64,000 bases of DNA from Candidatus Dormiibacterota bacterium. GTDB taxonomy: Bacteria > Acidobacteriota > Terriglobia > Acidiferrales > UBA7541. The first letter of the stretch is position 1, and the number at the start of each line of letters is the position of its first letter. The stretch spans positions 561 to 64,560 of the forward strand of contig DATNNV010000031.1 of NCBI GenBank assembly GCA_035601655.1, read 5' to 3'. The position numbers and the translations under genes are program-made. The notes under the pieces are model-generated. The model ran no database searches, was not told the DNA's origin, and was given only the letters and a program-made list of their open reading frames with translations. Shown here piece by piece: positions 20,317 to 35,851 of the stretch.

Positions 20317-20347
20317 AAAAGCGGCGGCGAGCCGCCGCACTCCCAAA
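20317..20347. repeat. REP-like family B copy
   Basis: AAAAGCGGCGGCGAGCCGCCGCACTCCCAAA; relatives at 13464, 22225 and 24986. Confidence 0.75.
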
Positions 20348-20383
20348 AAAGACGGGCCGGGCACTTGCGTGCGCCGGCCCGTT
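20345..20383 (-). terminator. Rho-independent terminator of the lipoprotein gene
   Basis: GACGGGCCGG...CCGGCCCGTT hairpin followed by T6 on the minus strand. Confidence 0.6.
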
Positions 20384-20410
20384 TGCCTTTTGCGGAGGCG
20401 GGGAAAGTCG

Positions 20411-21895
20411 TTAGTGTTTGCGGACGGTGGCCGCGAGAAAGGGTTGCGAGACTTTAGTGGGGTTCAGGAAGAGAGCGCGAATGGAAACAGAGTCGCCAAC
20501 GGAGAGGCCGCCGATGTTGCCGCCGGTGACGTTGTCGAAGTTGGTCTGCGGAACGAAGGTCTGCACCTGGGGCGGGACGTTGGGGGTCCCAAAGAAGCTC
20601 TGGAAATTCTGGATGGTCAAGACATTGCCGGAGATAGTGGCGACGGTGCCGGTCAGGCGGCTGAAACGCAAGACCATGCGGTCAGCCAGGACGTTCACGA
20701 GGACGCCCGCGGCGGCCGGGGTCGCGGACTTCACGTGCACGAGCACGTTCTGGCCGTCGCTAATGTCGGTTGCGTCCAAGAAACCGGCGGGATTGGTAAT
20801 GCCCAGGTTACTGGTGTCTACTGCGAAAGTGGCGGCAGGGTCGAGAGTAACATTCAGAGTGAATCCCGGGCCCACAGGAGTAAGTACGGCGTTGGCGCTG
20901 GTCTGGATTTTGTCATTTACGATGAGGAGAAATTTGCCGGCCGTCGTGGTGTGGAAGATGGTGCCCTGGAGTTCGTCGGAAGCGGGAATATCGAGGAAAT
21001 CGACGTTGGTGAGGGCCACGGTACCGTCTGCGGCAACATTCCCGTCAACGCTTAGAGTTTGCCCGACAGCGACGCAGGCAAGGTTGAAATTGCCGCCGCA
21101 TGGCGCGGGGGTGGGCGGAAGGGGAGGCGGATCGAAGGTGGTGGTTGTGGAAGATGCCGTGCCGATGAAAGTGAGGCCAGCATTGTTTTGCAGGGTGATT
21201 TTGCCGCCGCTGACGGCGGTGACTTTTCCGAGGAAGTCCTGGAGGGTGTCGATGGTGCCGGAAGGCTGGCCGGTTCTCGGAAGGGTGATGGCGGTGAGGG
21301 CGCCGGTTTGTTTGAGGTCGAAGCTGAGGCCGCCGGTGGCAGTAAGGGCCTTGTTGAGATTGAGCTCGATGCCGAGCGAGGTGTTTTCGCCGCTGGTAAG
21401 GACGAGACCCTGACCGGAGAGGCCTGCCACCTTGGTAAGGTCAATCGAGAGTTGGCCTTGCGCACCGCCCGCAAAATTGCAGATCGTAAGGGTGTTGCAG
21501 CCGATGATGGTGGATCCGGAACCGTTGAACCAAACCCCGGACGGCGAATTGGTTACAAAGATGTTGAGCTTTGTGAAGGTGCCAGCGGGCACCTGGAACG
21601 TGCCGATGCCGGTAGAATCGCTTTGCAGACGAGTGAGCTCAAAGGTGGTGGAGGTGGAGAGCAGGTTCACGTCCGCGCCGGTGGTGGGCGTTAGGCTGAT
21701 GAGGCTGATCGGCATGTTGAGAGTTATGAAGGAGACGCCAGCCGGGGGTGCATCGAAGAGAGTGAGGGTGACGTTGGCGTTGCCGGCGACGTTGCAGTTG
21801 ACGGTGCAGACCTGTTGCTTTATGCCGCTGCAGGAAGACAGCGAGAGAGCTACGAGCGCTAGGAGCGCGAAGAGAAAAGAGTTCTTGCGGTTCAT
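20411..21895 (-). CDS. Putative lipoprotein, beta-rich (DUF4382/DUF5666-like)
   Basis: ATG 21895 gives MNRKNSFLFALLALVALSLSSC (lipobox-like), then VTLTLFDAPP and repeated GxVTAV/GTVATI strands. Domain names are by resemblance only. Confidence 0.7.
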   Translation of the reverse strand: MNRKNSFLFALLALVALSLSSCSGIKQQVCTVNCNVAGNANVTLTLFDAPPAGVSFITLNMPISLISLTPTTGADVNLLSTSTTFELTRLQSDSTGIGTFQVPAGTFTKLNIFVTNSPSGVWFNGSGSTIIGCNTLTICNFAGGAQGQLSIDLTKVAGLSGQGLVLTSGENTSLGIELNLNKALTATGGLSFDLKQTGALTAITLPRTGQPSGTIDTLQDFLGKVTAVSGGKITLQNNAGLTFIGTASSTTTTFDPPPLPPTPAPCGGNFNLACVAVGQTLSVDGNVAADGTVALTNVDFLDIPASDELQGTIFHTTTAGKFLLIVNDKIQTSANAVLTPVGPGFTLNVTLDPAATFAVDTSNLGITNPAGFLDATDISDGQNVLVHVKSATPAAAGVLVNVLADRMVLRFSRLTGTVATISGNVLTIQNFQSFFGTPNVPPQVQTFVPQTNFDNVTGGNIGGLSVGDSVSIRALFLNPTKVSQPFLAATVRKH

Positions 21896-22224
21896 TGGAT
21901 ACCCCATGGCGGAATTGATTTTGTTTGCCCACGTCCCATGGACACACGGATTCCCCGAATTAATGTAGCGCGGGAGGAGTGAAGGAGGCGGGGGTAAAAG
22001 GGAGCGGGTGTTCAAGTGTTAAATCAGGGAGGGGTGATGGGGAGTGGCGAGATGGGAGCTATGTGGGGGCGAATGGTGCGGCCAGGGTAAAGCCTGCGAT
22101 ACATAAGGCGGAATGGCGGCGACGGCTGGGTTGCGAATCTAAAGACTCGCCACTACGTGGGCTTGCTGTTTATGGTGGGAGGGTGGGAACGATTGGCGCT
22201 GCGGGATCGGGTTTCGGCGGACGG

Positions 22225-22254
22225 AAAAGCGGAGGCTAGCCTCCGCACTCCAAA
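22225..22254. repeat. REP-like family B copy
   Basis: AAAAGCGGAGGCTAGCCTCCGCACTCCAAA. Confidence 0.75.
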
Positions 22255-22301
22255 GGGGTGTGTTATGGTTGCGGATTCGATGGGATTGGGAAGGCTGGAC
22301 A

Positions 22302-24461
22302 TTGGCTAAGCGTGGGAATGGCAAGGGTGTGGTGGTGACGGGCGGCGCGGCGGGGGCGCGGGTGGAGCGGCGGTATGTGCCGTTAGAGGATGATCCGACG
22401 GTGGTTGGGGAGGGGATCGCGGATGGCGCCGGGGCAAACGGAAGCGCTGAGGATAACGGATCGCGGAGCACAGGCAAGAGTGCCTGTGCTACCGGGGCGG
22501 ACCCTGCAAAGGCGGGCGGCGGGGCGGGGGCGGTTACGATGCGGGAGGTGTTTGGGCCGGGGGGGTTGTTGGAGCGGTGCATGATGGGGGGGTATGAGCA
22601 CCGGGCTGGGCAGTTGGAGATGGCGGAGGCGGTGCATGATGCATTTGAGGGGCATCATCACGCGATTGTGGAGGCGGGAACGGGGACGGGGAAGACGCTG
22701 GCGTATTTGCTGCCGGCGATATGCAGCGGGCGGCGGGTGGTGATTTCGACGGCTACGAAATCGCTGCAGGAGCAGCTTTTTCAGAAGGATATTCCGTTTT
22801 TGCAGAAGCATTTTGCGCCGAACCTGAAAGTGGCGGTGATGAAGGGGCGGGCGAATTTCTTGTGCGTCGAGAAATTGAATCACATGCAGGACCAGGCTTT
22901 GCTGAAGGGCATGGACGAGATGGATGCGTTTCAGCAGATCAAAGGATGGTCGAAGCTGACGGAGACGGGAGACCGGGCGGAACTGACGTTTTTGCCGGAT
23001 GATTCGGAGTTGTGGTCGCGCCTCGATGCGCGCCGGGATACGTGCATGGGGCAGAAGTGTCCTTCGTTTGGGCCGTGTTTTGTGACGGGGATGCATCAAC
23101 GGGCCAAGGAAGCGGATTTGATTATCGTGAATCATCATTTGTTTTTCGCGGATCTAGCGCTGAAGCAGGACGATTTTGGGAGCATTTTGCCGGAGTATTC
23201 GGCGGTGGTGTTTGACGAAGCGCATGAGATGGAAGATGTGGCGAGCGATTATTTTGGGCGGCAGATTTCGAATTACCGGTTTGAGGAATTGGCGCGGGAT
23301 GCGGACATTGCGCTGCGATTGCTGAAATTGGGGACGCCGTCGTTGCTGCGTCGTACGCAGAAGATTCGGGAGAAGAGCCGGGCGTTTTTCGAGCTGTTTC
23401 CGGCGCGGGATGGGCGGTTTCCGTTTTCGCGGCAGGAACGCGAAGCGTTCTTGGAGCAGCATCGCGAGGGGTATGACGGGTTGGCATCGGCGCTGAAATC
23501 GGTGGAGACGGAATTTGCGGCCATGACGCAGAAGCCGGAGGAATTGCTGCGGCTGGGGCGGCGAAGCTTTGAGATGCGGCAGGAACTGGGGTTCTTGTTT
23601 GAATCGAATGAGAAGAATTATGTGTATTGGTACGAGCGGAGGAATAAGGGCGTGTTTCTGGCGGCGACGCCGATTGACGTGAGCCAGATTTTGCGGCAGC
23701 GGCTGTTCGAGCAGTTCGATACCGTGGTGCTGACATCGGCGACGCTGACGGTGGGAGGGCGATTTGAATTTATTCGGCAACGGCTGGGCATCGATCATGT
23801 GAAAGAGAATGCGTTGCCGCCGGAATTCGATTATCCGAAGCAGGCGCTGCTGTATTTGCCGCGGAATATGCCGGATGTGCGGAGTCCGGGATTTGCGGGT
23901 GGGGCGGCGGACGAAATTGTGAAGCTGCTGGAATTGAGCGAAGGGCGGGCGTTTTGTTTGTTCACGAGTTATTCGCAGATGAATGATTTGTACGAGCGGG
24001 TGCGCGGGCGGGTGAAGTTTCCGATGCTGCTGCAGGGGACGGCGCCGCGGTCGGCGCTGCTGGAACGGTTCAAGAATACAGATGGGGCGGTGTTGTTTGC
24101 CACGGCGAGCTTTTGGCAGGGAGTGGATGTGCCGGGGGAACAGCTTTCTTGCGTGATCGTGGACCGACTGCCGTTCGCGGTGCCCAGCGATCCGATCGTG
24201 GCGGCGCGAGTGGCGGCGTTGCAAGAGGAAGGGCGGAACGCGTTTGCGGAGTTTCAGGTGCCGGCGGCGGTGTTGGCGTTGAAGCAGGGATTTGGGCGGT
24301 TGATCCGGACGAAGACGGATCGCGGGGTGTTGGCGTTGCTCGATACGCGGATTCAGCGGATGCCGTATGGTAAAATTTTCTTGGCGTCGTTGCCGGGGTA
24401 TCGGGTGACGTCGGAGTTGGAGGATGTGGAGAGGTTTTTTGGGGTGGCTGGGCGCGGCTAG
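22302..24461 (+). CDS. DinG/YoaA-family ATP-dependent Fe-S DNA helicase
   Basis: EAGTGTGKT, DEAH, LTSATL, FWQGVDVPG, QGFGRLIR and Fe-S cysteines (NFLC...CMGQKC...C). Start uncertain (TTG 22302 or ATG 22539). Confidence 0.92.
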   Translation: MAKRGNGKGVVVTGGAAGARVERRYVPLEDDPTVVGEGIADGAGANGSAEDNGSRSTGKSACATGADPAKAGGGAGAVTMREVFGPGGLLERCMMGGYEHRAGQLEMAEAVHDAFEGHHHAIVEAGTGTGKTLAYLLPAICSGRRVVISTATKSLQEQLFQKDIPFLQKHFAPNLKVAVMKGRANFLCVEKLNHMQDQALLKGMDEMDAFQQIKGWSKLTETGDRAELTFLPDDSELWSRLDARRDTCMGQKCPSFGPCFVTGMHQRAKEADLIIVNHHLFFADLALKQDDFGSILPEYSAVVFDEAHEMEDVASDYFGRQISNYRFEELARDADIALRLLKLGTPSLLRRTQKIREKSRAFFELFPARDGRFPFSRQEREAFLEQHREGYDGLASALKSVETEFAAMTQKPEELLRLGRRSFEMRQELGFLFESNEKNYVYWYERRNKGVFLAATPIDVSQILRQRLFEQFDTVVLTSATLTVGGRFEFIRQRLGIDHVKENALPPEFDYPKQALLYLPRNMPDVRSPGFAGGAADEIVKLLELSEGRAFCLFTSYSQMNDLYERVRGRVKFPMLLQGTAPRSALLERFKNTDGAVLFATASFWQGVDVPGEQLSCVIVDRLPFAVPSDPIVAARVAALQEEGRNAFAEFQVPAAVLALKQGFGRLIRTKTDRGVLALLDTRIQRMPYGKIFLASLPGYRVTSELEDVERFFGVAGRG

Positions 24462-27872: not shown

Positions 27873-28688
27873 CTATTTGTGGGTGAGGGTGCCGGTTGTT
27901 TTGGTGCGGCGGACGGCCCAAGCGAAAGCGCTCATGGATAGGGGAAGAAGAATCGCGGCGAAGAGGAGGAGAGCGACGAGCGGGCGCCAGAGTGAGGCGA
28001 GGGTGGCGCCTGTCAGCAGGGCGGCGCGCATGGCGTCGAGCGCGTAGGTGACGGGGTTGAGACGCGCGATTACTTGAAGCCACGCAGGAAGAATGGAAAC
28101 GGGAAAGAGCGTGCCTCCTACGATGCCGGTGATTCCGAGCACGAACCACTTCGCGGGATTGCCGCGCTTGAAGACGAGCAGGTAGCTGGAGGAGAGAATG
28201 CCGAGTCCGGAGAAGGCCAGCAGGGAAGCGAGAAGGACGGCGAAGACGGAAAGCCAATTCGCGGAACGCAGCGGGAAACCGAAGAGAATGGCGGACCAGA
28301 AGAAATAGACGGCGATGCGGAGAGTGGTGGCGACGAAAGGATAGAGCGCGGAACCGGCCACGAAAATGGGCAGGGAAGTTTGCGTGATGAGCAGGTGCTC
28401 GAGGGTGCCGGAATCGCGGGCTTCTTCGAGGCTATGATCGAAAGTGTCGAGGGCGGCGTTGAGATAGTCCAGAAAGACGAAACCGATAAGGGAGAAGGTG
28501 AAGTAGCTGCCGCCTTGCGGGAGAGCTTGCTGGAGTCCGGGGCTGTCGACGAAGCGCGCGACGTAATAGAAGGTGGCGGCACCGAAAAGGGCCTCGACGG
28601 CTTCGACGATAAACACGGTGCGATAGGAGCGCGCAATGGTTAGATCGCGCCAAAAGAACAGCCACATCTGGCGGAGTGCGGCGATCAT
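27873..28688 (-). CDS. ABC-2 type exporter permease (lasso cluster)
   Basis: About 6 TM helices, EEARDSGTLEHLL and FPVSILPAWLQVIARLNPVTYALDAMR. Confidence 0.9.
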   Translation of the reverse strand: MIAALRQMWLFFWRDLTIARSYRTVFIVEAVEALFGAATFYYVARFVDSPGLQQALPQGGSYFTFSLIGFVFLDYLNAALDTFDHSLEEARDSGTLEHLLITQTSLPIFVAGSALYPFVATTLRIAVYFFWSAILFGFPLRSANWLSVFAVLLASLLAFSGLGILSSSYLLVFKRGNPAKWFVLGITGIVGGTLFPVSILPAWLQVIARLNPVTYALDAMRAALLTGATLASLWRPLVALLLFAAILLPLSMSAFAWAVRRTKTTGTLTHK

Positions 28689-29533
28689 TCGACGGAAGCC
28701 TCGGTGTGAGGTTCGCCGCCGCGGCCGGTGAGGCGGAGAAAGACTTCTTCGAGCGTGGGCGCTGATGTGCGTCGCTGCAAAGCAGAGAGCGAGTCGCAGG
28801 CGAGCAAACGGCCGTGATCGATGATGGCAATGCGATCGGCGAGGCTTTCGACTTCGGGGAGGGTGTGGGAGGCGAAGAGAATGGAAGTGGCGCCGGGCTG
28901 AAGTACTTGCGTTTTGAGAAAGCGGCGGAACTCGGCGGCGGCGATGACGTCGATGCTGCGGGTGGGCTCGTCCAAGAGGAGTACGCGAGGACGATGGAGG
29001 AGAGCGCGGGCGAGGCTGAGGCGCTGAACGGTGCCGGAAGAAAGGGTGCGGACCTGGCGATCGAGGAATTCGCCAAGGGCGAACTGGGTGGCCAGCGTAG
29101 CGATGCGCTCTCGAGCCATGGAAAGGGAAAGGCCATTGAGCTGGCCGAAGAAAAGGAGATTTTGGCGAGCGGAGAGGCGCGGATAGAGGCCATGATCGGT
29201 GCCGGCGTGATAGCCGAGCTGGCGGCGGACGTCCCGCGAATGCGTGAGAGTGTCGTAGCCGGCGACGCGCGCGCGGCCGGCGGTGGGAAGGAGCAGGGTG
29301 GCGATAATGCGCAGGAGCGTGGACTTGCCTGCACCGTTGGCTCCGAGGAGGGCGACGGACTCGCCTTCGCGGACTTGCAGGGACACCTCCGCCAAGGCGG
29401 CGACGCTGGCTTTTTCAAAGGGCTGAAGGAAGGCGCGCCAACCGCTGCGCGCTGGCGGGAAGGACTTGTCGAGCGATTCGACGGAAATGGCGGGTGAAGT
29501 CACCAGGAGACTTATAGCGTGAGTGACGGGCAC
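28685..29533 (-). CDS. ABC exporter ATP-binding subunit (lasso cluster)
   Basis: GANGAGKST, LSSGTVQR, LLLDEP and SH switch. Start may be GTG 29503. Confidence 0.92.
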   Translation of the reverse strand: MPVTHAISLLVTSPAISVESLDKSFPPARSGWRAFLQPFEKASVAALAEVSLQVREGESVALLGANGAGKSTLLRIIATLLLPTAGRARVAGYDTLTHSRDVRRQLGYHAGTDHGLYPRLSARQNLLFFGQLNGLSLSMARERIATLATQFALGEFLDRQVRTLSSGTVQRLSLARALLHRPRVLLLDEPTRSIDVIAAAEFRRFLKTQVLQPGATSILFASHTLPEVESLADRIAIIDHGRLLACDSLSALQRRTSAPTLEEVFLRLTGRGGEPHTEASVE

Positions 29534-29691
29534 AAGACAATGCGGTTAGGGATGCGAAGTGGTGCGTGCCGGGGCGGACGGATGGCGCGTAGCGGAGCGC
29601 GCGAAACATGGATAGAATAGAGAACCGGACATCGCAAACCCCAGCCCCTGCAATGTCTTCGACCGCGGAGTGCCCGCGCAGGAGCCGAGAC

Positions 29692-29997
29692 ATGGTTTCA
29701 TTTACAGATCGTGCCAAAGTGCCCTCGCATGTGCTGATACGTTTCCTCGAGGAAGAGTCGGTGCTGCTGAACCTGGACACGGAGCGTTATTTCGGGCTGG
29801 ACGGGACGGGAACGCGGATGTGGCAGGCGGTCACCGCGGCGCCCAATATCTCCGTGGCTTACGGGGAGTTGCTCCAGGAGTTTGATGTCGAGCCGGAATT
29901 GCTGCGCACGAATTTGACGGATTTGCTCGGGCGGCTGCTGGACAACGGACTGCTCGAGGTGCGTCCTGGGGATGTGGGAACGGCTGCGGCGGTTTAG
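29692..29997 (+). CDS. PqqD-family RiPP recognition element (lasso B1)
   Basis: AGGAG RBS; ESVLLNLDTERYFGLDGTGTRMW...LLQEFDVEPELLRTNLTDLLGRLLDNGLL. Confidence 0.92.
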   Translation: MVSFTDRAKVPSHVLIRFLEEESVLLNLDTERYFGLDGTGTRMWQAVTAAPNISVAYGELLQEFDVEPELLRTNLTDLLGRLLDNGLLEVRPGDVGTAAAV

Positions 29998-30430
29998 CGC
30001 GCTGGATGGACAAGCGCAAAGGATGTTTCTGTGGGCGATGTTCGCGTTGCCACTGGTGTCGCAGAGCCTGAGGTGGCGCGGGCTTCGCGCGACGCAAGAA
30101 AGCCTGCAGCGGCGCCAAGCGCCGGGCAGGAAGCCTACTAAGTCCGAAAGCCAAAAGTTGGAAGTGACTGTGCGGATGGTGAAGGCCGCGGTGCGCCACG
30201 GCCTGGGTCATCCCACGTGTCTGGAAGAATCCTTGACGCTTTGGTGGCTGCTGGCGAGTCAGGGGATTCCCTCGGAAGTACGGATCGGCATCCGCAAACA
30301 GGCGGAGAATTTTGAGGCGCACGCGTGGGTGGAGCGCGATGGCATCGCGTTGAACGAGCCCGAAGCAAAGCACCGGCATTACGAGGCCTTTGCATCAGAA
30401 TTTCCCCCGGCTGGAGGAGAGATACGATGA
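29972..30430 (+). CDS. Lasso peptide leader peptidase (B2, transglutaminase-like)
   Basis: PTCLEESL (catalytic Cys), RIGIR and FEAHAWVE (catalytic His). Overlaps the RRE and cyclase genes. Confidence 0.92.
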   Translation: MWERLRRFSALDGQAQRMFLWAMFALPLVSQSLRWRGLRATQESLQRRQAPGRKPTKSESQKLEVTVRMVKAAVRHGLGHPTCLEESLTLWWLLASQGIPSEVRIGIRKQAENFEAHAWVERDGIALNEPEAKHRHYEAFASEFPPAGGEIR

Positions 30431-32274
30431 GCGGGTTCGCGGGCGTGGTCAGCAGCGATGGCGCACCCGTGGACGCGGGCCTATTGGGGCGGATGGCGGA
30501 GCAGCTGGCGTTTCGCGGACCGGACGCAAGCGCCGTACGAATACTGGATGGCGCGGGGTTCTGCTTTACATTGATGCGCACCGGTCCCGCGCCGCAAGAG
30601 GAAGTGCAGCCACTCAGTCTTGACGGACGGCAGTGGCTGATCGGGGACATCCGTTTGGACGGGCGCGAGGATCTGCGTAAAGCGCTGAGCCAAGCCGGCC
30701 AAGAAACTCCTGCGACGATGGCGACGGATGAAGAGCTGACGCTGCGGGCCTGGCAGTTGCGCGGCGCAGAATCCGGCGAGCTGCTGATGGGGGACTACGC
30801 GTTCGCCGTATGGGAGCCGGGTGTCCGGCGGCTGGTCTGCGTGCGCGATGTGATTGGAGTGCGGCCGTTCTTTTATGGCCAGGTGGGCAACACGCTGTGC
30901 TTCAGCAACACGCTGGAGGTGTTGCGGATGGTGCCGGGCATGGATCTGCGGGTGGATGCGCATTTTGTCGGCGACTTTCTGCTGGAGGGCTGGTGCTTGG
31001 ACCCGGAACGGACGGTGCATCGAGGCATCCGGCGGCTGAAGGCCGGACACCTGGTGCAATTTGAGAATGGAGTTGCGGCAACGCGGCGCTTTGCCGAGTT
31101 GCCGATGAGAGCGCCGCTGACGTACCGGCGGGCTGAGGACTACGTCGAACAGTTTCAATCGCTCTTGCAAGCTGCGGTGCGCGAACGGATGCCGCGAGCC
31201 CCTGCTGCTTTCTTCATGAGCGGAGGGTTGGACTCCACGAGCGTGGCTGCGACGGCGGCGCAGACCGCGGAGGGCGCTGGTGCGAAAGGAAGTTTTCGCG
31301 CGTATACGGTCGATTTTCGTCCGATCCTGGAGGACGACGAGGCACGGTTTGCAATAAAGGCGGCCGGGTATATTGAAATGTCCATCGAGATCGTGCGGGT
31401 AGGCGACGAGCGGCCGTTCGGCTGTTGGACTGATAACAGTCTTCGATGGCCTGAGCCGCTGCATGAACCGTTTCAATCGCGACACGTGCAGATGTGCCGG
31501 GAAGTGAGTGGGTTTGCCCGAGTGAGTATGTCGGGCGACGGAGGCGACGACATTCTTTCGGGAACGGCGACACCATATGCCCGCTATTTAGCGAGGGACG
31601 GGCAGTTCCTGAAGTTGGCGACGGCCTTCACCGGATTCCTGTGGCGCCAAAAACGGCTGCCGACAATGGGTACCGGACTAAGAGCCCGCTTGCGGAAATG
31701 GAGAACCGCAGAGCGGGAGGAGGGCTCGCTACCGCAGTGGCTGCAACCCGAATTCGCCAGGAAGCTGGGCCTCCGGGAGAGGCAGAAAGAGCTGAGGCGC
31801 GGGTTGCGATACACGCATGCGTTTCATCCCGGAGGATACGCTGCGTTGTCGCAGGGGTACTGGGCAGGGGTTTTGGAAGATGAGGACGCCGCGTGGACCG
31901 GGGTGCCGCTAGAACGGAGAGCGCCGTTTCTGGACCGGCGGCTGGTGGAATTTCTGCTGCAAGTGCCGCCAGTGCCCTGGTGCATGGATAAAGAGCTTCT
32001 GCGCGAGGCCATGCGAGGATTACTGCCCGAGGAAGTGCGTACCCGGCCGAAGACGCCGCTCCGGCAGGAGCCGTTTGCGGCTCAGGCAGAGCGGTTGAAG
32101 TGGAGCCCGTTGCCGCTGGAGCGGAATCATCCCATTCTGGACGAATTTGTGGACTGGAAAAAACTGGAAGCAACTTTGCAAAGGGTCCCGGGTTCGCAAT
32201 TATGGGACGAATTGACGCCGGTCTCGCTGCACCACTGGGCGAAAGCCGTTGAAAATGACGGGGTAATTCTGTAG
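30427..32274 (+). CDS. Lasso cyclase (asparagine-synthetase-like C protein)
   Basis: Begins MSGFAG, so the glutaminase Cys of AsnB is replaced by Ser. RGPD, RDVIGVRPFFY, SGGLDSTS, SGDGGDD and RAPFLDRRLVEF. ATGA coupling to B2. Confidence 0.92.
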   Translation: MSGFAGVVSSDGAPVDAGLLGRMAEQLAFRGPDASAVRILDGAGFCFTLMRTGPAPQEEVQPLSLDGRQWLIGDIRLDGREDLRKALSQAGQETPATMATDEELTLRAWQLRGAESGELLMGDYAFAVWEPGVRRLVCVRDVIGVRPFFYGQVGNTLCFSNTLEVLRMVPGMDLRVDAHFVGDFLLEGWCLDPERTVHRGIRRLKAGHLVQFENGVAATRRFAELPMRAPLTYRRAEDYVEQFQSLLQAAVRERMPRAPAAFFMSGGLDSTSVAATAAQTAEGAGAKGSFRAYTVDFRPILEDDEARFAIKAAGYIEMSIEIVRVGDERPFGCWTDNSLRWPEPLHEPFQSRHVQMCREVSGFARVSMSGDGGDDILSGTATPYARYLARDGQFLKLATAFTGFLWRQKRLPTMGTGLRARLRKWRTAEREEGSLPQWLQPEFARKLGLRERQKELRRGLRYTHAFHPGGYAALSQGYWAGVLEDEDAAWTGVPLERRAPFLDRRLVEFLLQVPPVPWCMDKELLREAMRGLLPEEVRTRPKTPLRQEPFAAQAERLKWSPLPLERNHPILDEFVDWKKLEATLQRVPGSQLWDELTPVSLHHWAKAVENDGVIL

Positions 32275-32295: not shown

Positions 32296-32451
32296 ATGAG
32301 TCGGCCGGCAGAGGCTTCTGCGAAGAAACCATACCAGGCGCCGAAATTGCTCGTTTACGGCAACTTGACAGAGATAACCCAGGCACGCTCCACCAAGCCG
32401 AGTTCAAAAGACGGAGCGACCATGGGTGTGAAGCGCAAGACAGGCCGATAG
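32296..32451 (+). CDS. Lasso peptide precursor (51 aa; absent from ORF track)
   Basis: MSRPAEASAKKPYQAPKLLVYGNLTEITQ-ARSTKPSSKDGATMGVKRKTGR*: a full YxxPxLxxxGxxxxxT leader motif, GGGAGA RBS, located between cyclase and kinase. Confidence 0.92.
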   Translation: MSRPAEASAKKPYQAPKLLVYGNLTEITQARSTKPSSKDGATMGVKRKTGR

Positions 32452-32492: not shown

Positions 32493-33509
32493 GTGAGTTA
32501 TCGCTATCGCTTATACGGATTGAGCCTTGAGGCAGAAGAAAGCCTGCCGGGACTCGAAGACAATAGCGCAGCTCGCGAGGAAAGCTTTGTCCGTTTGCAG
32601 CTTGGCGCGGAGCCGGACTGGGTCCGGCACGCGCGCAGCCTTGCCTCTCGCCGCGTCCATCAGCTGGAGGCCAAGGCCGAAAGCGACGATCCCGCCCTTG
32701 TTATAACCTCGTACGGAGAAGACCGTTTTTTTGGGTTGGCGTATACGGACGGAACCCAATTTTTGACCGATGCGGATGGCGGGCGCCTGTGGGGTGCATG
32801 GGCGGAGCCGTGGACCAAGGAAGATTTCGCAACGTATCTGTTGGGGCCGGTATTGGGCTTCGTGCTCCGGCGGAGAGGTGTGACGCCGCTGCACGCGAGC
32901 GCCGTTTGTGTTGCGGGGAAGGCCGTCGTTTTCTGCGGCGATGCGCAAGCGGGTAAATCAACGACAGCGGCGGCACTGGGACTGCGCGGCGTGCTGGTCC
33001 TATGCGAAGATATCGCGGCGCTGAGGTTGGCCGACAATCGCTACTGGGTGGAGCCGGGTTATCCGCGCGTTTGCCTGTGGCCCGACAGCGTGGAAAAGCT
33101 GCTGGGACGCGGCGATGCGCTGCCGCTCTTGACGCCGAATTGGGAGAAGCGCTACTTGCCGCTGGACGGAGTGCTGGCGGGCTTCCAACGGGAAAGATGC
33201 CCGGTGGGCGCGGTTTATATGCTGGCTGAGCGAGCGGCGGAGGGGCGCGCGCCCCGCGTCGAAAAGATGACTCCGAAAGAGGCGCTGCTGGAATTAGTGC
33301 AGAATACGTACATGAATTGGCTGCCGGATCGCGAACAGCGGGCGCGGGAGTTCGAGGCGCTGGCGAAATTGGTTGCGCAGGTACCGGTGCGACGGATGGT
33401 GGCGCACTGCGATGCGAGGCGCATGGACGATCTGTGCCGCGTCATCCTGGCGGATGCCGCGAGCTTGCTCACGGGCCGGATCGCAGCTTCTGAGCCGGTG
33501 CAGCGCTGA
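32493..33509 (+). CDS. HPr-kinase-like RiPP kinase
   Basis: PLHASAV, Walker A GDAQAGKSTTAA, LCEDIAAL and PGYPRVCLWPDS, in lasso cluster context. Confidence 0.85.
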   Translation: MSYRYRLYGLSLEAEESLPGLEDNSAAREESFVRLQLGAEPDWVRHARSLASRRVHQLEAKAESDDPALVITSYGEDRFFGLAYTDGTQFLTDADGGRLWGAWAEPWTKEDFATYLLGPVLGFVLRRRGVTPLHASAVCVAGKAVVFCGDAQAGKSTTAAALGLRGVLVLCEDIAALRLADNRYWVEPGYPRVCLWPDSVEKLLGRGDALPLLTPNWEKRYLPLDGVLAGFQRERCPVGAVYMLAERAAEGRAPRVEKMTPKEALLELVQNTYMNWLPDREQRAREFEALAKLVAQVPVRRMVAHCDARRMDDLCRVILADAASLLTGRIAASEPVQR

Positions 33510-33510
33510 A

Positions 33511-34656
33511 ATGTACGATCTCGATCAATACGGCGCAATGATCGTGGACGGCACGCGAACTTCCGCGTACATGCAAGCGATCGCGCGGGCGGTGCGGCCG
33601 GGCGACGTGGTCGTGGATCTGGGATGCGGTCCTGGGCTGCTTGCGTTGCTGGCATGCCGCGCGGGAGCGAAGCGGGTGTACGCGATTGAAGGCAACGAAA
33701 GTGTGGCGTTCGCGAGAGAGCTGGCAGCGGCCAACGGCTATGCCGACCGGATCGAAATCCTACACGGGTCGTCGCGGCGGATGGAATTGCCGGAGCGCGC
33801 GAACGTAATCGTTTCTGATTTGCGCGGCGTGCTGCCGCTTCTTGGCGATGCCATCGCTTCTATCGATGATGCGCGGGAGCGGTTTCTTGCTCCCGGTGGC
33901 GCGATGATCCCGGCGTCGGATCGTTTGCATGGAGCGCTGGCGGGCGCGGCGGAGTTCTACGCGCAAATCGTCTCACCGTGGAAGGACTCGCTGGACGGCG
34001 TGCGGCTATCGCCGATGCGGGAACGCGCGCTCAACACAACGTACAGCGTGCGCTTCGACGCCGGAAAGATGATGAGCGAAGCTCAGGAATGGGGCCGGTT
34101 TGAGTATCCGTTGGGCGCGAAAGGGCGAGCAGCCGCGAACTTGAGATTTGAGGCATTGCGCGATGGCACGGTGCATGGGATTTGCTTGTGGTTCGATACG
34201 GTCCTGTTTCAGGAGATCGGCTATTCGAGTGCGCCGGCCGCGCCTGGCGCGCCGGAAACCGTCTACGGACAATTGTTTCTGCCGTGGATCGAGCCCGTGA
34301 AGGTTGAGGCAGGCCAGGAGATTTTGGTTGATTTACACGCGGACCCGGTCGGGGACGGCTACATCTGGCGGTGGGACACGACGATTCCGGGAGAAGAGAA
34401 TGCGCGAACACTTCGGCAGTCCACGATGGAAGGCGTGCCGTTTTCGCTCGAGGTGCTGCGAAGGCGCGCCACGGAATTTGTGCCGAAGGCGTCGCCGTTC
34501 GGTCAGGCGGAAGCGTGGGTGCTGCAGAGCATGAATGGAACGACCTCGCTGCAAGAAATTGCGGACGGAGCGGCAGCGCGGTTTCCGAAAGTGTTCCGCA
34601 ATTCGCAGGAAGCGCTGCAGCTGGTTTCCAGGCTTTCGGACGAGTTTGCGCTGTAA
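33511..34656 (+). CDS. SAM-dependent methyltransferase with PRMT-like fold and C-terminal PqqD/RRE-like helices
   Basis: MIVDGTRTSAY, VVDLGCGPGLL, AGAKRVYAIE, VIVSDLRG, ARERFLAPGGAMIP and HGICLWFD. Tail WVLQSMNGTTSLQEIADGAAARFP. ATG 33511. Confidence 0.85.
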   Translation: MYDLDQYGAMIVDGTRTSAYMQAIARAVRPGDVVVDLGCGPGLLALLACRAGAKRVYAIEGNESVAFARELAAANGYADRIEILHGSSRRMELPERANVIVSDLRGVLPLLGDAIASIDDARERFLAPGGAMIPASDRLHGALAGAAEFYAQIVSPWKDSLDGVRLSPMRERALNTTYSVRFDAGKMMSEAQEWGRFEYPLGAKGRAAANLRFEALRDGTVHGICLWFDTVLFQEIGYSSAPAAPGAPETVYGQLFLPWIEPVKVEAGQEILVDLHADPVGDGYIWRWDTTIPGEENARTLRQSTMEGVPFSLEVLRRRATEFVPKASPFGQAEAWVLQSMNGTTSLQEIADGAAARFPKVFRNSQEALQLVSRLSDEFAL

Positions 34657-34684
34657 TCTGAAGTGGCCCAAGACGGACGGCAGC

Positions 34685-35851
34685 TTGCGAACGACATCGC
34701 CATTAAGCGAACTCGGAGCTTCCGCGGAGTGGCAGATTCTGCTGGAGTGCGCTGCGACGCGCGGTGATCCGGCTGGCTTGAACGAACTGCTGCGGAAGGC
34801 GAATTGGGATTTTCTGATCGAGCTTGCCGAAGAGCACGGCGTTATTGGCATGGTTGCGGCGCGGCTCCGCGAGTGCGACGAGACGATCGTGCCGGCGGCG
34901 TTTCGCGGGCAATTACTGGAACGACAGCGATCTCACGTGCTTTCCGCATTGAGCTTGATCGCGGAAATGATTCGCATCCTGAACCGCTTCGGCGAGGCGG
35001 GCATTCAGGCGCTGGTGCTGAAAGGGCCGGCGCTTTCGCTGCAGGCCTACGGCGATGCGACGGCGCGGCAATATGGCGACGTGGATCTGCTGGTGAGGCA
35101 AAAAGACATTTATCGGGCCACGGAGATCATGACGCTGGCTGGATTTGACGCGGACGTGCCGCTAGCGGCTGTTGCTGCCGGCAAGATTCCCGGCGAGTAC
35201 CTATTCTTGCGGACGAATACCAAAGTGATCGTGGAGTTGCACACCGAAAAAACGCTGCGCTACTTTCCGAATACCCTGGCGATGGAAAGATTGTTCGACC
35301 AGCATACGACGTTGGATTTTAACGGGCATGCGGTGCCGACGCTGTCGAGCGAAGATGCGCTGGTGGCGATGTGCACGCATGGAGCGAAGCATTGTTGGGA
35401 GCGGCTGATGTGGATCGCGGATGTTTCGGCAATGTTGAGGCGGCAGACGGGAATGGATTGGGAAGGTGTCGCGCGGATCGCGGAGAGTTTGGGTGCGCAG
35501 CGCATTGTTTACACGGGGTTGTTGCTGTCGCGCGAGCTTTTGCGTGCGCCGGTGCCTGCTGCTGTGGAAGAGCAGGCGCGTGCGGACCGGTGGGCGTGCA
35601 AGTTGGCGAGGAGGATCGAGGCGTGGCTGCCGGCTGCTGGAGAGGCATCGCCGGGATTGCTGCGCCGCGCTGTCTTTCGGGCGCAGATGCGCGGCGGGTT
35701 TTTGCACGGGATCGGCTACCTCGCGAGACTTTTGTTTTCACCGACTGAAGAGGATTGGAGAGAGGGTCACGAGCACAAGAGTTCGCGGCTTCTGGAAACG
35801 GGGCGGCGGCTGGTTCGTCTGGCCGGAAAATACGGACGAGATCCCAATTAG
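34685..35851 (+). CDS. Nucleotidyltransferase family protein (NTP_transf_5-like, RiPP-associated)
   Basis: LVLKGPALS, RQYGDVDLLV, VELH and HGAKHCWERLMWIADV. Start uncertain (TTG 34685). Confidence 0.85.
   Translation: MRTTSPLSELGASAEWQILLECAATRGDPAGLNELLRKANWDFLIELAEEHGVIGMVAARLRECDETIVPAAFRGQLLERQRSHVLSALSLIAEMIRILNRFGEAGIQALVLKGPALSLQAYGDATARQYGDVDLLVRQKDIYRATEIMTLAGFDADVPLAAVAAGKIPGEYLFLRTNTKVIVELHTEKTLRYFPNTLAMERLFDQHTTLDFNGHAVPTLSSEDALVAMCTHGAKHCWERLMWIADVSAMLRRQTGMDWEGVARIAESLGAQRIVYTGLLLSRELLRAPVPAAVEEQARADRWACKLARRIEAWLPAAGEASPGLLRRAVFRAQMRGGFLHGIGYLARLLFSPTEEDWREGHEHKSSRLLETGRRLVRLAGKYGRDPN

Follow-up and report, generated by a model that had tools for sequence, protein, structure and literature searches.

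The 64-kb window (the whole stretch of DNA that was analyzed) contains a complete lasso peptide cluster with genes for an ABC exporter, B1, B2, a cyclase, a precursor, a kinase, a methyltransferase, and a nucleotidyltransferase. We read the last three as enzymes that would tailor a cationic lasso peptide in a pathway directed at Thr20 of the core, and we assign this reading a probability of roughly 0.58. Judged from sequence comparison, Thr20, the third-last residue of the core, is the likely phosphorylation site because a near-C-terminal Thr/Ser is conserved among homologous cores, while position 3 and the ring serines are not. The tailoring genes are genuine: more than 2,000 homologues were found for the kinase, and about 150 loci keep the gene order.

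A cationic lasso peptide cluster

The genes and the predicted site are located as follows.
27873–29533, minus strand: ABC-2 exporter, divergently transcribed (PF00005 and PF01061)
28685–29533 and 27873–28688, minus strand: exporter ATPase and permease, respectively; most related loci have both genes in this place
29608–29997, plus strand: B1, PqqD-type RiPP recognition element (PF05402, E = 4e-12; NCBIfam lasso PqqD models)
29972–30430, plus strand: B2, transglutaminase-like leader peptidase (NF033537, lasso_biosyn_B2, E = 9e-23)
30427–32274, plus strand: C, asparagine-synthetase-like lasso cyclase (NF033535, E = 9e-73; PF00733)
32296–32451, plus strand: lasso precursor, 51 amino acids (NCBIfam lasso leader models; NF033528, E = 2e-8)
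32440–32442, plus strand: codon ACA of Thr20, predicted phosphorylation site, inside the conserved R-K-T-G motif
32493–33509, plus strand: HprK-like peptide kinase, 338 amino acids (TIGR04352, E = 2e-7)
33511–34656, plus strand: PRMT-fold SAM-dependent methyltransferase, 381 amino acids (Pfam PrmA and PRMT5_C; Foldseek)
34646–35851, plus strand: NTP_transf_5 nucleotidyltransferase, a PsmN-like “N” gene (PF14907, E = 1e-58)

The B1, B2, and C genes and the precursor with its YxxPxL...T(−2) leader are all present, adjacent, and on one strand. The cyclase likely starts at ATG 30427, overlapping the B2 stop codon, and the nucleotidyltransferase at TTG 34646 or TTG 34685. The kinase starts 42 nt 3′ of the precursor stop codon, and the methyltransferase starts 1 nt past that of the kinase. 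The three tailoring genes and the precursor all lie where the initial annotation had placed them; its title does not name the methyltransferase.

The precursor consists of a 29-amino-acid leader and a 22-amino-acid core, ARSTKPSSKDGATMGVKRKTGR. The leader fits YxxPxLx3Gx5Tx exactly (Y at −17, P at −14, L at −12, T at −2) and ends in T-Q, with Thr at −2 in place of the Ile/Val of BsfK-type precursors. Hydroxyl residues are found at S3, T4, S7, S8, T13, and T20, as had been listed, and the core ends in KTGR rather than in the Ser that terminates paeninodin- and pseudomycoidin-type precursors. A search of the rest of the genome, which is 81% complete, found neither another lasso-type leader nor an additional precursor ending in Ser. 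The sole acidic core residue is Asp10, one position beyond the 7 to 9 usual for a lasso ring acceptor; of the 132 homologous cores, 74 have the acceptor at position 9, 52 at position 10, and 6 at position 8. The count rests on an inferred leader cleavage site, and the 10-residue ring is accordingly a prediction.

Tailoring enzymes and their characterized relatives

Paeninodin-type kinases phosphorylate the C-terminal Ser of linear precursors (PMC9266682), and in pseudomycoidin a hexose is added to the phosphate in a PsmN-dependent manner (PMC6993621); the initial annotation, which had built on these two systems, described them correctly. The window’s kinase gives a weak sequence match to HprK-related kinase A (the TIGR04352 match listed above). 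Its AlphaFold model (pLDDT of 90) matches the HPrK/P structures 1ko7 and 1jb1 (Z = 15.1, rmsd of 2.7 to 3.0 over 137 to 138 residues) and, over its whole length, PEPCK (Z = 15.4), while a profile of the kinase family matches HPr kinase 3tqf (E = 2.8e-5). Residues H134, G149, G154-K155-S156, and E172-D173 are invariant in the family, and the spacing of H134, G154-K155-S156, and E172-D173 is that of H148, G168-K169-S170, and D186-D187 in BsfK, which have been validated by mutation (PMC10368454). The first catalytic Asp is replaced by Glu, a conservative change that is itself invariant across the family. Because an HPrK/P fold is combined with invariant catalytic residues at the BsfK spacing, the kinase looks active as far as sequence and model can tell.

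The nucleotidyltransferase gene is found together with the kinase gene in 101 of the 104 related loci with enough flanking sequence. Residues K163, G164, R178, D182, D184, E234, and H236 are at least 97% conserved among 99 unique homologues, and the D182-x-D184 metal site is retained as the counterpart of D134/D136 in PsmN, which are essential (PMC6993621). A sequence search of solved structures returned no relatives of this enzyme. The methyltransferase gene is present in 55 of the same 104 loci. Foldseek relates its product to PRMT6, CARM1, PRMT8, and Hmt1 (E of about 1e-24, 22 to 27% identity, TM of 0.6 to 0.67), Pfam detects PRMT5_C (E = 3e-8), and a Rossmann SAM-binding domain is followed by a PRMT beta-barrel. 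Its helical C-terminal tail looks PqqD/RRE-like by motif resemblance; Pfam detected no such domain there.

In its split B1/B2, HprK-like kinase, NTP_transf_5 enzyme, His/P-loop Lys-Ser/acidic pair motif, and hydroxyl residue at or near the C terminus, the cluster resembles the paeninodin/pseudomycoidin type (PadeK, ThcoK, SyanK, and PsmK; PsmN), and by analogy the linear precursor is the expected substrate here too. Unlike in that type, the hydroxyl residue is Thr rather than Ser and is followed by two residues (0 to 3 in the family), the core is not acidic but strongly cationic, with Asp10 as the only ring acceptor, the first catalytic Asp is Glu, and a PRMT-fold methyltransferase is encoded between kinase and nucleotidyltransferase. 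BsfK of Bradymonas sediminis phosphorylates Ser3 of BsfA; the BsfA precursor has a C-terminal Asp, and a nucleotidyltransferase is encoded in that cluster as well (PMC10368454). The window shares with the Bsf cluster the kinase-nucleotidyltransferase pair, the missing C-terminal Ser, the identical catalytic spacing, and Ser3 itself. However, the BsfA core starts with GTS behind a leader with Ile(−2) and is modified at Ser3, whereas Ser3 is not conserved in the window’s family and the near-C-terminal Thr is.

The linear polyphosphorylated peptides of Bacillota made by LppK/LppN likewise involve an HprK-like kinase, an NTP transferase, a recognition element, and a leader-bearing peptide, with LppK acting on Ser3 of LppA (PMC13381572). 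In contrast to the window, Lpp clusters lack a cyclase and use a signal-peptidase-like leader protease; the LppA core starts with AQS, and Thr is not accepted at the Ser3 site (PMC13381572). Elsewhere in the genome, a separate contig (C77) carries a cassette without a cyclase that is closer to this logic than the window’s cluster is. By description, lariocidin and triculamin are similar in their Lys/Arg-rich core, Gly-flanked ring-closing Asp, and short basic R-G-like tail, but their clusters carry a GNAT acetyltransferase for self-resistance and neither a kinase nor a nucleotidyltransferase, and lariocidin is described as ending in Arg17-Gly18 without mention of a near-C-terminal Thr motif. 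A literature search found no biochemically characterized member of the window’s own family.

A conserved near-C-terminal threonine and its alternatives

We compared 149 related loci, whose kinases are 35 to 93% identical to that of the window and which encode 132 unique cores. The precursor gene lies 12 to 62 nt upstream of the kinase gene in all 149. A Thr/Ser is found 0 to 3 residues from the C terminus in 128 of the 132 cores, compared with 70 on average and never more than 88 for shuffled cores, a test whose significance is overstated because related loci share ancestry. The distance from the last Ser/Thr to the end is 0 residues in 35 cores, 1 in 40, 2 in 46, and 3 in 7, and the four remaining cores retain a K-T-G or S-T-G motif ahead of longer tails. 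The motif, (R/K)(R/K)-T/S and then G, A, or no further residue, thus occurs in 132/132, with Thr in 125, Ser in 7, and nothing else at the hydroxyl position; elsewhere the core is variable. The final residue itself is Thr in 34 cores and Ser in 1. Conservation of the terminal KTG motif in homologous precursors, the check that the initial annotation had suggested, therefore came out strongly positive.

The motif Thr/Ser is the sole Ser/Thr/Tyr in 11 of these cores (19 if position 1 is set aside), so that if the kinases paired with these 11 cores phosphorylate the core at all, the motif residue must be the site. The initial annotation had proposed phosphorylation at an internal residue, T20 or the ring serines: the conserved motif favors T20, but positions 3 to 8 carry Ser/Thr in just 3 to 17% of the 132 cores, which speaks against the ring serines. 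Its suggestion of a new regiochemistry is not supported, since phosphorylation away from the C terminus had already been demonstrated at Ser3 of BsfA (PMC10368454) and LppA (PMC13381572). On the sequence evidence, Thr20 would also lie close to the classical C-terminal site, 0 to 3 residues off across the family and at the very last residue in 35/132 cores.

Kinase-bearing lasso clusters of Acidobacteriota that are more distantly related (30 to 43% identity) encode cores with the same kind of ending: KTD, RTRV, YTEP, MTG, VSR, KSVG, KTGN, and RT. A phylum-wide cyclase search for related clusters without a kinase, in which most matches were ordinary asparagine synthases, recovered only two, with the ends SSGN and GNT; as both have Ser/Thr near the C terminus, the presence or absence of a kinase provides no contrast. 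Two unpublished genomes, G152 and G024, are not used as a basis for any claim. Conservation of the Thr could instead reflect target binding or folding. The Acidobacteriaceae precursors of Duan et al. (Granulicella and others, with ...ADE or ...SDE ends) were considered and set aside as a different, acidic family.

The main rival to Thr20 is Ser3, which would be selected by its fixed distance from the leader, Thr20 being conserved for another reason. The cores of the window and of its five closest relatives (kinases 56 to 93% identical) all begin with ARS, and two characterized HprK-like RiPP kinases, one of them from a cluster that also encodes a nucleotidyltransferase, act on Ser3. Across the family, however, position 3 is Ser/Thr in only 17% of the 132 cores, with Gly there in another 64, yet every locus has the kinase; the 11 cores whose only hydroxyl residue is near the C terminus offer no alternative target, and the Thr(−2) of the window’s leader differs from the Ile(−2) that Bsf-group leaders typically have. 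We therefore regard Ser3 as unlikely. If instead Gly21-Arg22 were trimmed before or after phosphorylation, the product would carry a classical C-terminal phosphoresidue of ordinary regiochemistry, with Thr replacing Ser. The Thr is followed by a short stretch that differs between cores (G, GR, GA, or GGG) and by nothing in the 35 cores in which this residue is already final, and there are documented cases, lariocidin and triculamin, in which a C-terminal Gly or Arg is removed. But lariocidin needs a dedicated clostripain-like enzyme, LrcF, for this step, neither the window’s cluster nor its relatives encode a peptidase besides B2, and known lasso kinases use the full linear precursor ahead of any processing (PMC9266682), which makes trimming quite improbable.

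It is also improbable that the kinase and nucleotidyltransferase are not dedicated to a single core site and modify several hydroxyls (T13, T4, or the ring serines), the leader, or some other substrate, for instance in immunity or regulation. The cassette on contig C77, with B1, B2, kinase, and nucleotidyltransferase genes, indicates that pairs of this kind function beyond lasso pathways as well, and LppN was without activity on its presumed substrate in a heterologous host (PMC13381572). This is countered by the coupling of the kinase gene to a precursor gene in about 150 loci, by the conservation of just one hydroxyl position across the cores, and by the fact that every characterized homologue phosphorylates the adjacent precursor at one residue.

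Proposed pathway and its meaning

From the gene identities, folds, catalytic residues, linkage, and motif conservation described above, we infer a site, a step order, and a chemistry for Thr20-directed tailoring. The HprK-like kinase would bind the leader-bearing linear precursor, probably with the help of B1, which accelerates phosphorylation by BsfK (PMC10368454), and would phosphorylate Thr20 within (R/K)(R/K)-T/S-(G/A/end). The NTP_transf_5 enzyme would then build on this phosphate; a hexose, the group added through PsmN in pseudomycoidin, is the likeliest addition, and a different NTP- or NDP-sugar-derived group is the alternative. The PRMT-fold methyltransferase probably N-methylates a nearby Arg or Lys of the same linear precursor. 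B2 would cut off the leader, the cyclase would link Ala1 to Asp10, and the ABC pump would export the product. The initial annotation had envisaged tailoring either as a mask on the cationic peptide that would protect the producer or as a steric lock; the second role has a precedent in pseudomycoidin (PMC6993621). In a more far-reaching and rather doubtful version of the lock idea, the phosphohexosyl- or phosphonucleotidyl-Thr beside methylated basic residues would be an obligatory lower plug that holds a Gly/Ala-rich tail in an oversized ring of 9 to 10 residues, such that tailoring is needed for lasso topology across the very large cationic Acidobacteriota family; it might also mask charge in the producer.

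Phosphorylation at Thr20 would be a modest variant of a known modification and would leave the current understanding of the HprK-like enzyme family unchanged. If Thr20 is the site, a subterminal Thr would add a third positional logic for HprK-like RiPP kinases beside the C-terminal Ser and Ser3, and (R/K)(R/K)-T-(G/A/end) would provide a simple genome-mining rule with which to predict modified products. The family concerned is seemingly one of the commonest lasso families of soil Acidobacteriota, with more than 400 metagenome matches and 79 species genomes in the scans, and modification at Thr20 would connect phospho-glyco tailoring with cationic peptides for which RNA or the ribosome is a possible binding partner.

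Cluster, precursor, and tailoring enzymes

ORF listing and family scans show that the window holds a complete lasso-peptide cluster on the forward strand.

27873-29533, divergent ABC-2 exporter
29608-29997, + strand, B1/PqqD
29972-30430, + strand, B2
30427-32274, + strand, lasso cyclase
32296-32451, + strand, lasso precursor, 51 aa
32493-33509, + strand, HprK-related kinase, 338 aa
33511-34656, + strand, methyltransferase, 381 aa, PRMT fold
about 34646/34685 to 35851, + strand, NTP_transf_5 nucleotidyltransferase (PF14907, E = 1e-58)

The three tailoring genes (kinase, methyltransferase, and nucleotidyltransferase) directly follow the precursor gene with tight junctions: 42 nt from the precursor stop to the kinase start, 1 nt from the kinase stop to the methyltransferase start, and then either an overlap or a gap of ∼30 nt. 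The leader carries Y(-17), P(-14), L(-12), and T(-2), and the core boundary was therefore set as ARSTKPSSKDGATMGVKRKTGR. The initial annotation had correctly described this core as ending in KTGR, lacking a C-terminal Ser, and having hydroxyl residues S3, T4, S7, S8, T13, and T20. Its net positive charge comes from seven Lys/Arg residues.

The AlphaFold model of the kinase is confident (pLDDT 90, pTM 0.89). Residues 130 to 332 align with the catalytic domain of HPrK/P (1ko7 and 1jb1, Z = 15.1; 3tqf, Z = 14.6), and the full-length model aligns with PEP carboxykinase (276 residues, Z = 15.4), in agreement with Foldseek; a kinase profile of 23 homologues also matched the HPr kinase 3tqf (E = 2.8e-5). 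Because residues 1 to 128 (window 32493-32880) also align with the N-terminal part of PEP carboxykinase, the modeled kinase resembles a miniature PEPCK rather than an HPrK/P catalytic domain alone. H134, G149, G154-K155-S156-T157, and E172-D173 are invariant in the kinase family, with exactly the spacing of BsfK H148, G163, G168-K169-S170, and D186-D187, which are important by mutagenesis (PMC10368454); the first Asp of BsfK (D186) is conservatively replaced by Glu (E172).

In the nucleotidyltransferase, K163-G164, R178, D182-x-D184, E234, and H236 are at least 97% conserved among 99 unique homologues, and these residues, including D182-x-D184, fit the metal site of PsmN, whose D134A/D136A mutant is dead (PMC6993621). 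The methyltransferase has a PRMT fold, with Foldseek matches to PRMT6, CARM1, PRMT8, and Hmt1 (E about 1e-24), and a helical C-terminal tail whose likeness to the helical portion of PqqD domains is one of motif only. All three enzymes appear functional. Where at least 3.6 kb of sequence was available downstream (104 loci), the kinase occurs together with the nucleotidyltransferase in 101, and 55 have the methyltransferase.

Conservation of a Thr near the C terminus

A kinase profile search found 79 loci in species genomes, nearly all Acidoferrales, Acidoferrum, and other Terriglobia MAGs, and a single kinase query found 80 further loci in metagenomes. In 149 loci, a precursor gene encoding this leader motif stops 12 to 62 nt upstream of the kinase gene; these loci yield 132 unique cores, cationic and variable save for a C-terminal motif and the D-G/N ring end. 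The final Ser/Thr is the last residue in 35 cores, and it is separated from the C terminus by one residue in 40, two in 46, and three in 7 (128/132); the other 4 retain K-T-G or S-T-G with a longer tail behind it. Thr occupies this conserved position in 125 cores and Ser in 7. The residue at -1 is R in 65 and K in 44, and that at -2 is R in 87; on the C-terminal side comes G in 75, A in 16, and the stop codon in 35. When each core was shuffled, on average 70 of the 132 (88 at most) had a Ser/Thr among the last four residues; this is a descriptive control and not a probability because the loci are related. More telling are eleven sequence-diverse cores in which the conserved residue is the sole Ser, Thr, or Tyr (nineteen when position 1 is disregarded). 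A cyclase search added fifteen more distant Acidobacteriota lasso loci, thirteen with a kinase (30 to 43% identity) and core ends of ...KTD, ...RTRV, ...YTEP, ...MTG, ...VSR, ...KSVG, ...KTGN, and ...RT. None of the conclusions drawn here depends on the unpublished genomes G152 and G024.

The terminal KTG motif, which the initial annotation had suggested checking in homologous precursors, is thus conserved. Thr20 of the window's core belongs to it (R18-K19-T20-G21-R22) and is the leading candidate for phosphorylation. The ring serines, also proposed initially, are unsupported: positions 3 to 8 carry Ser/Thr in only 3 to 17% of the 132 cores, 64 of which have Gly at position 3.

The cores vary in other respects. 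The Asp that closes the ring occupies position 9 in 74, 10 in 52, and 8 in 6 of them (window 32383-32412), counts that depend on the inferred leader cleavage site; with Asp at position 10 in 52/132, the window's predicted 10-residue ring is common to a large subgroup and not a one-off. Across species genomes and metagenomes, methyltransferase presence goes with core composition: Met per core is 2.2 with the gene versus 0.16 without, Lys immediately precedes the conserved Thr in 32/60 versus 0/43 cores, and the ring Asp is at position 10 in 34/60 versus 4/43. This could reflect shared ancestry or point to the methylation site. Ten loci (L007, L098, L101, L102, L105, L112, L118, L140, L152, and L154) form a subgroup with cores ending ...(K/R)RT or ...MRT and a nucleotidyltransferase gene upstream of the cyclase; tblastn at E 1e-8 found no B1, B2, or ABC genes within their fetched flanks. 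Some related clusters encode two precursors (L063:7446-7990; L164, L166, L171, and L173), one of which, in L063, extends 15 residues beyond the K-T-G motif.

Alternative sites and proposed pathway

PadeK, ThcoK, SyanK, and PsmK act on linear precursors, (poly)phosphorylating the C-terminal Ser (PMC9266682), and addition of one or two hexoses to that phosphate requires PsmN (PMC6993621), as the initial annotation had accurately summarized. Its view of an internal site as a new regiochemistry has been overtaken: BsfK, sped up by B1, phosphorylates Ser3 of BsfA, whose precursor ends in Asp and whose cluster also has a nucleotidyltransferase gene (PMC10368454), and LppK polyphosphorylates a linear peptide at Ser3 (PMC13381572). 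Its observation of the core holds, and its interpretation is supported in part, for T20. Our literature search found no paper on the window's kinase-linked acidobacterial lasso family.

These precedents, together with the A-R-S start that the window's core has in common with its five closest relatives (kinases 56 to 93% identical), make Ser3 (established experimentally in BsfA and LppA) a real alternative, or a second site, in this subclade. We consider this unlikely, because Ser3, unlike the kinase, does not occur throughout the family. A C-terminal Thr could possibly be exposed by removal of the Gly-Arg that follows Thr20, but B2 is the only peptidase that the cluster encodes and known lasso kinases act before precursor processing (PMC9266682). 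As to other substrates, the 81%-complete genome has no lasso-type leader besides the window's. On another of its contigs, C77 (about 20340-23360; L162:5338-8358, minus strand), B1/PqqD-like, B2-like, kinase-like (about 27 to 29% identity), and NTP_transf_5-like genes lie in a row beside an RHS-core gene, with no lasso cyclase or recognizable precursor; this cassette may be a relative of linear phosphorylated peptide systems.

Gene identities, folds, catalytic residues, linkage, and motif conservation being established, we propose a pathway by analogy. The kinase, assisted by B1, would phosphorylate Thr20 on the leader-bearing precursor, and the nucleotidyltransferase would then extend the phosphate with a hexose or another group. 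The PRMT-like enzyme may N-methylate a neighboring basic residue, an Arg/Lys modification absent from those given in the lasso-peptide reviews consulted. Leader removal, Ala1-Asp10 cyclization, and export would follow. A role as steric plug is plausible for a peptide with a 9- to 10-residue ring, because pseudomycoidin produced without its kinase and nucleotidyltransferase is unthreaded (PMC6993621). For charge masking, the other role initially suggested, a single phosphate would cancel little of the net positive charge on the core. The tailoring chemistry is of a known kind; what would be new is the predicted site, a sub-terminal Thr in place of the terminal Ser of the known system, in a large uncharacterized acidobacterial family.
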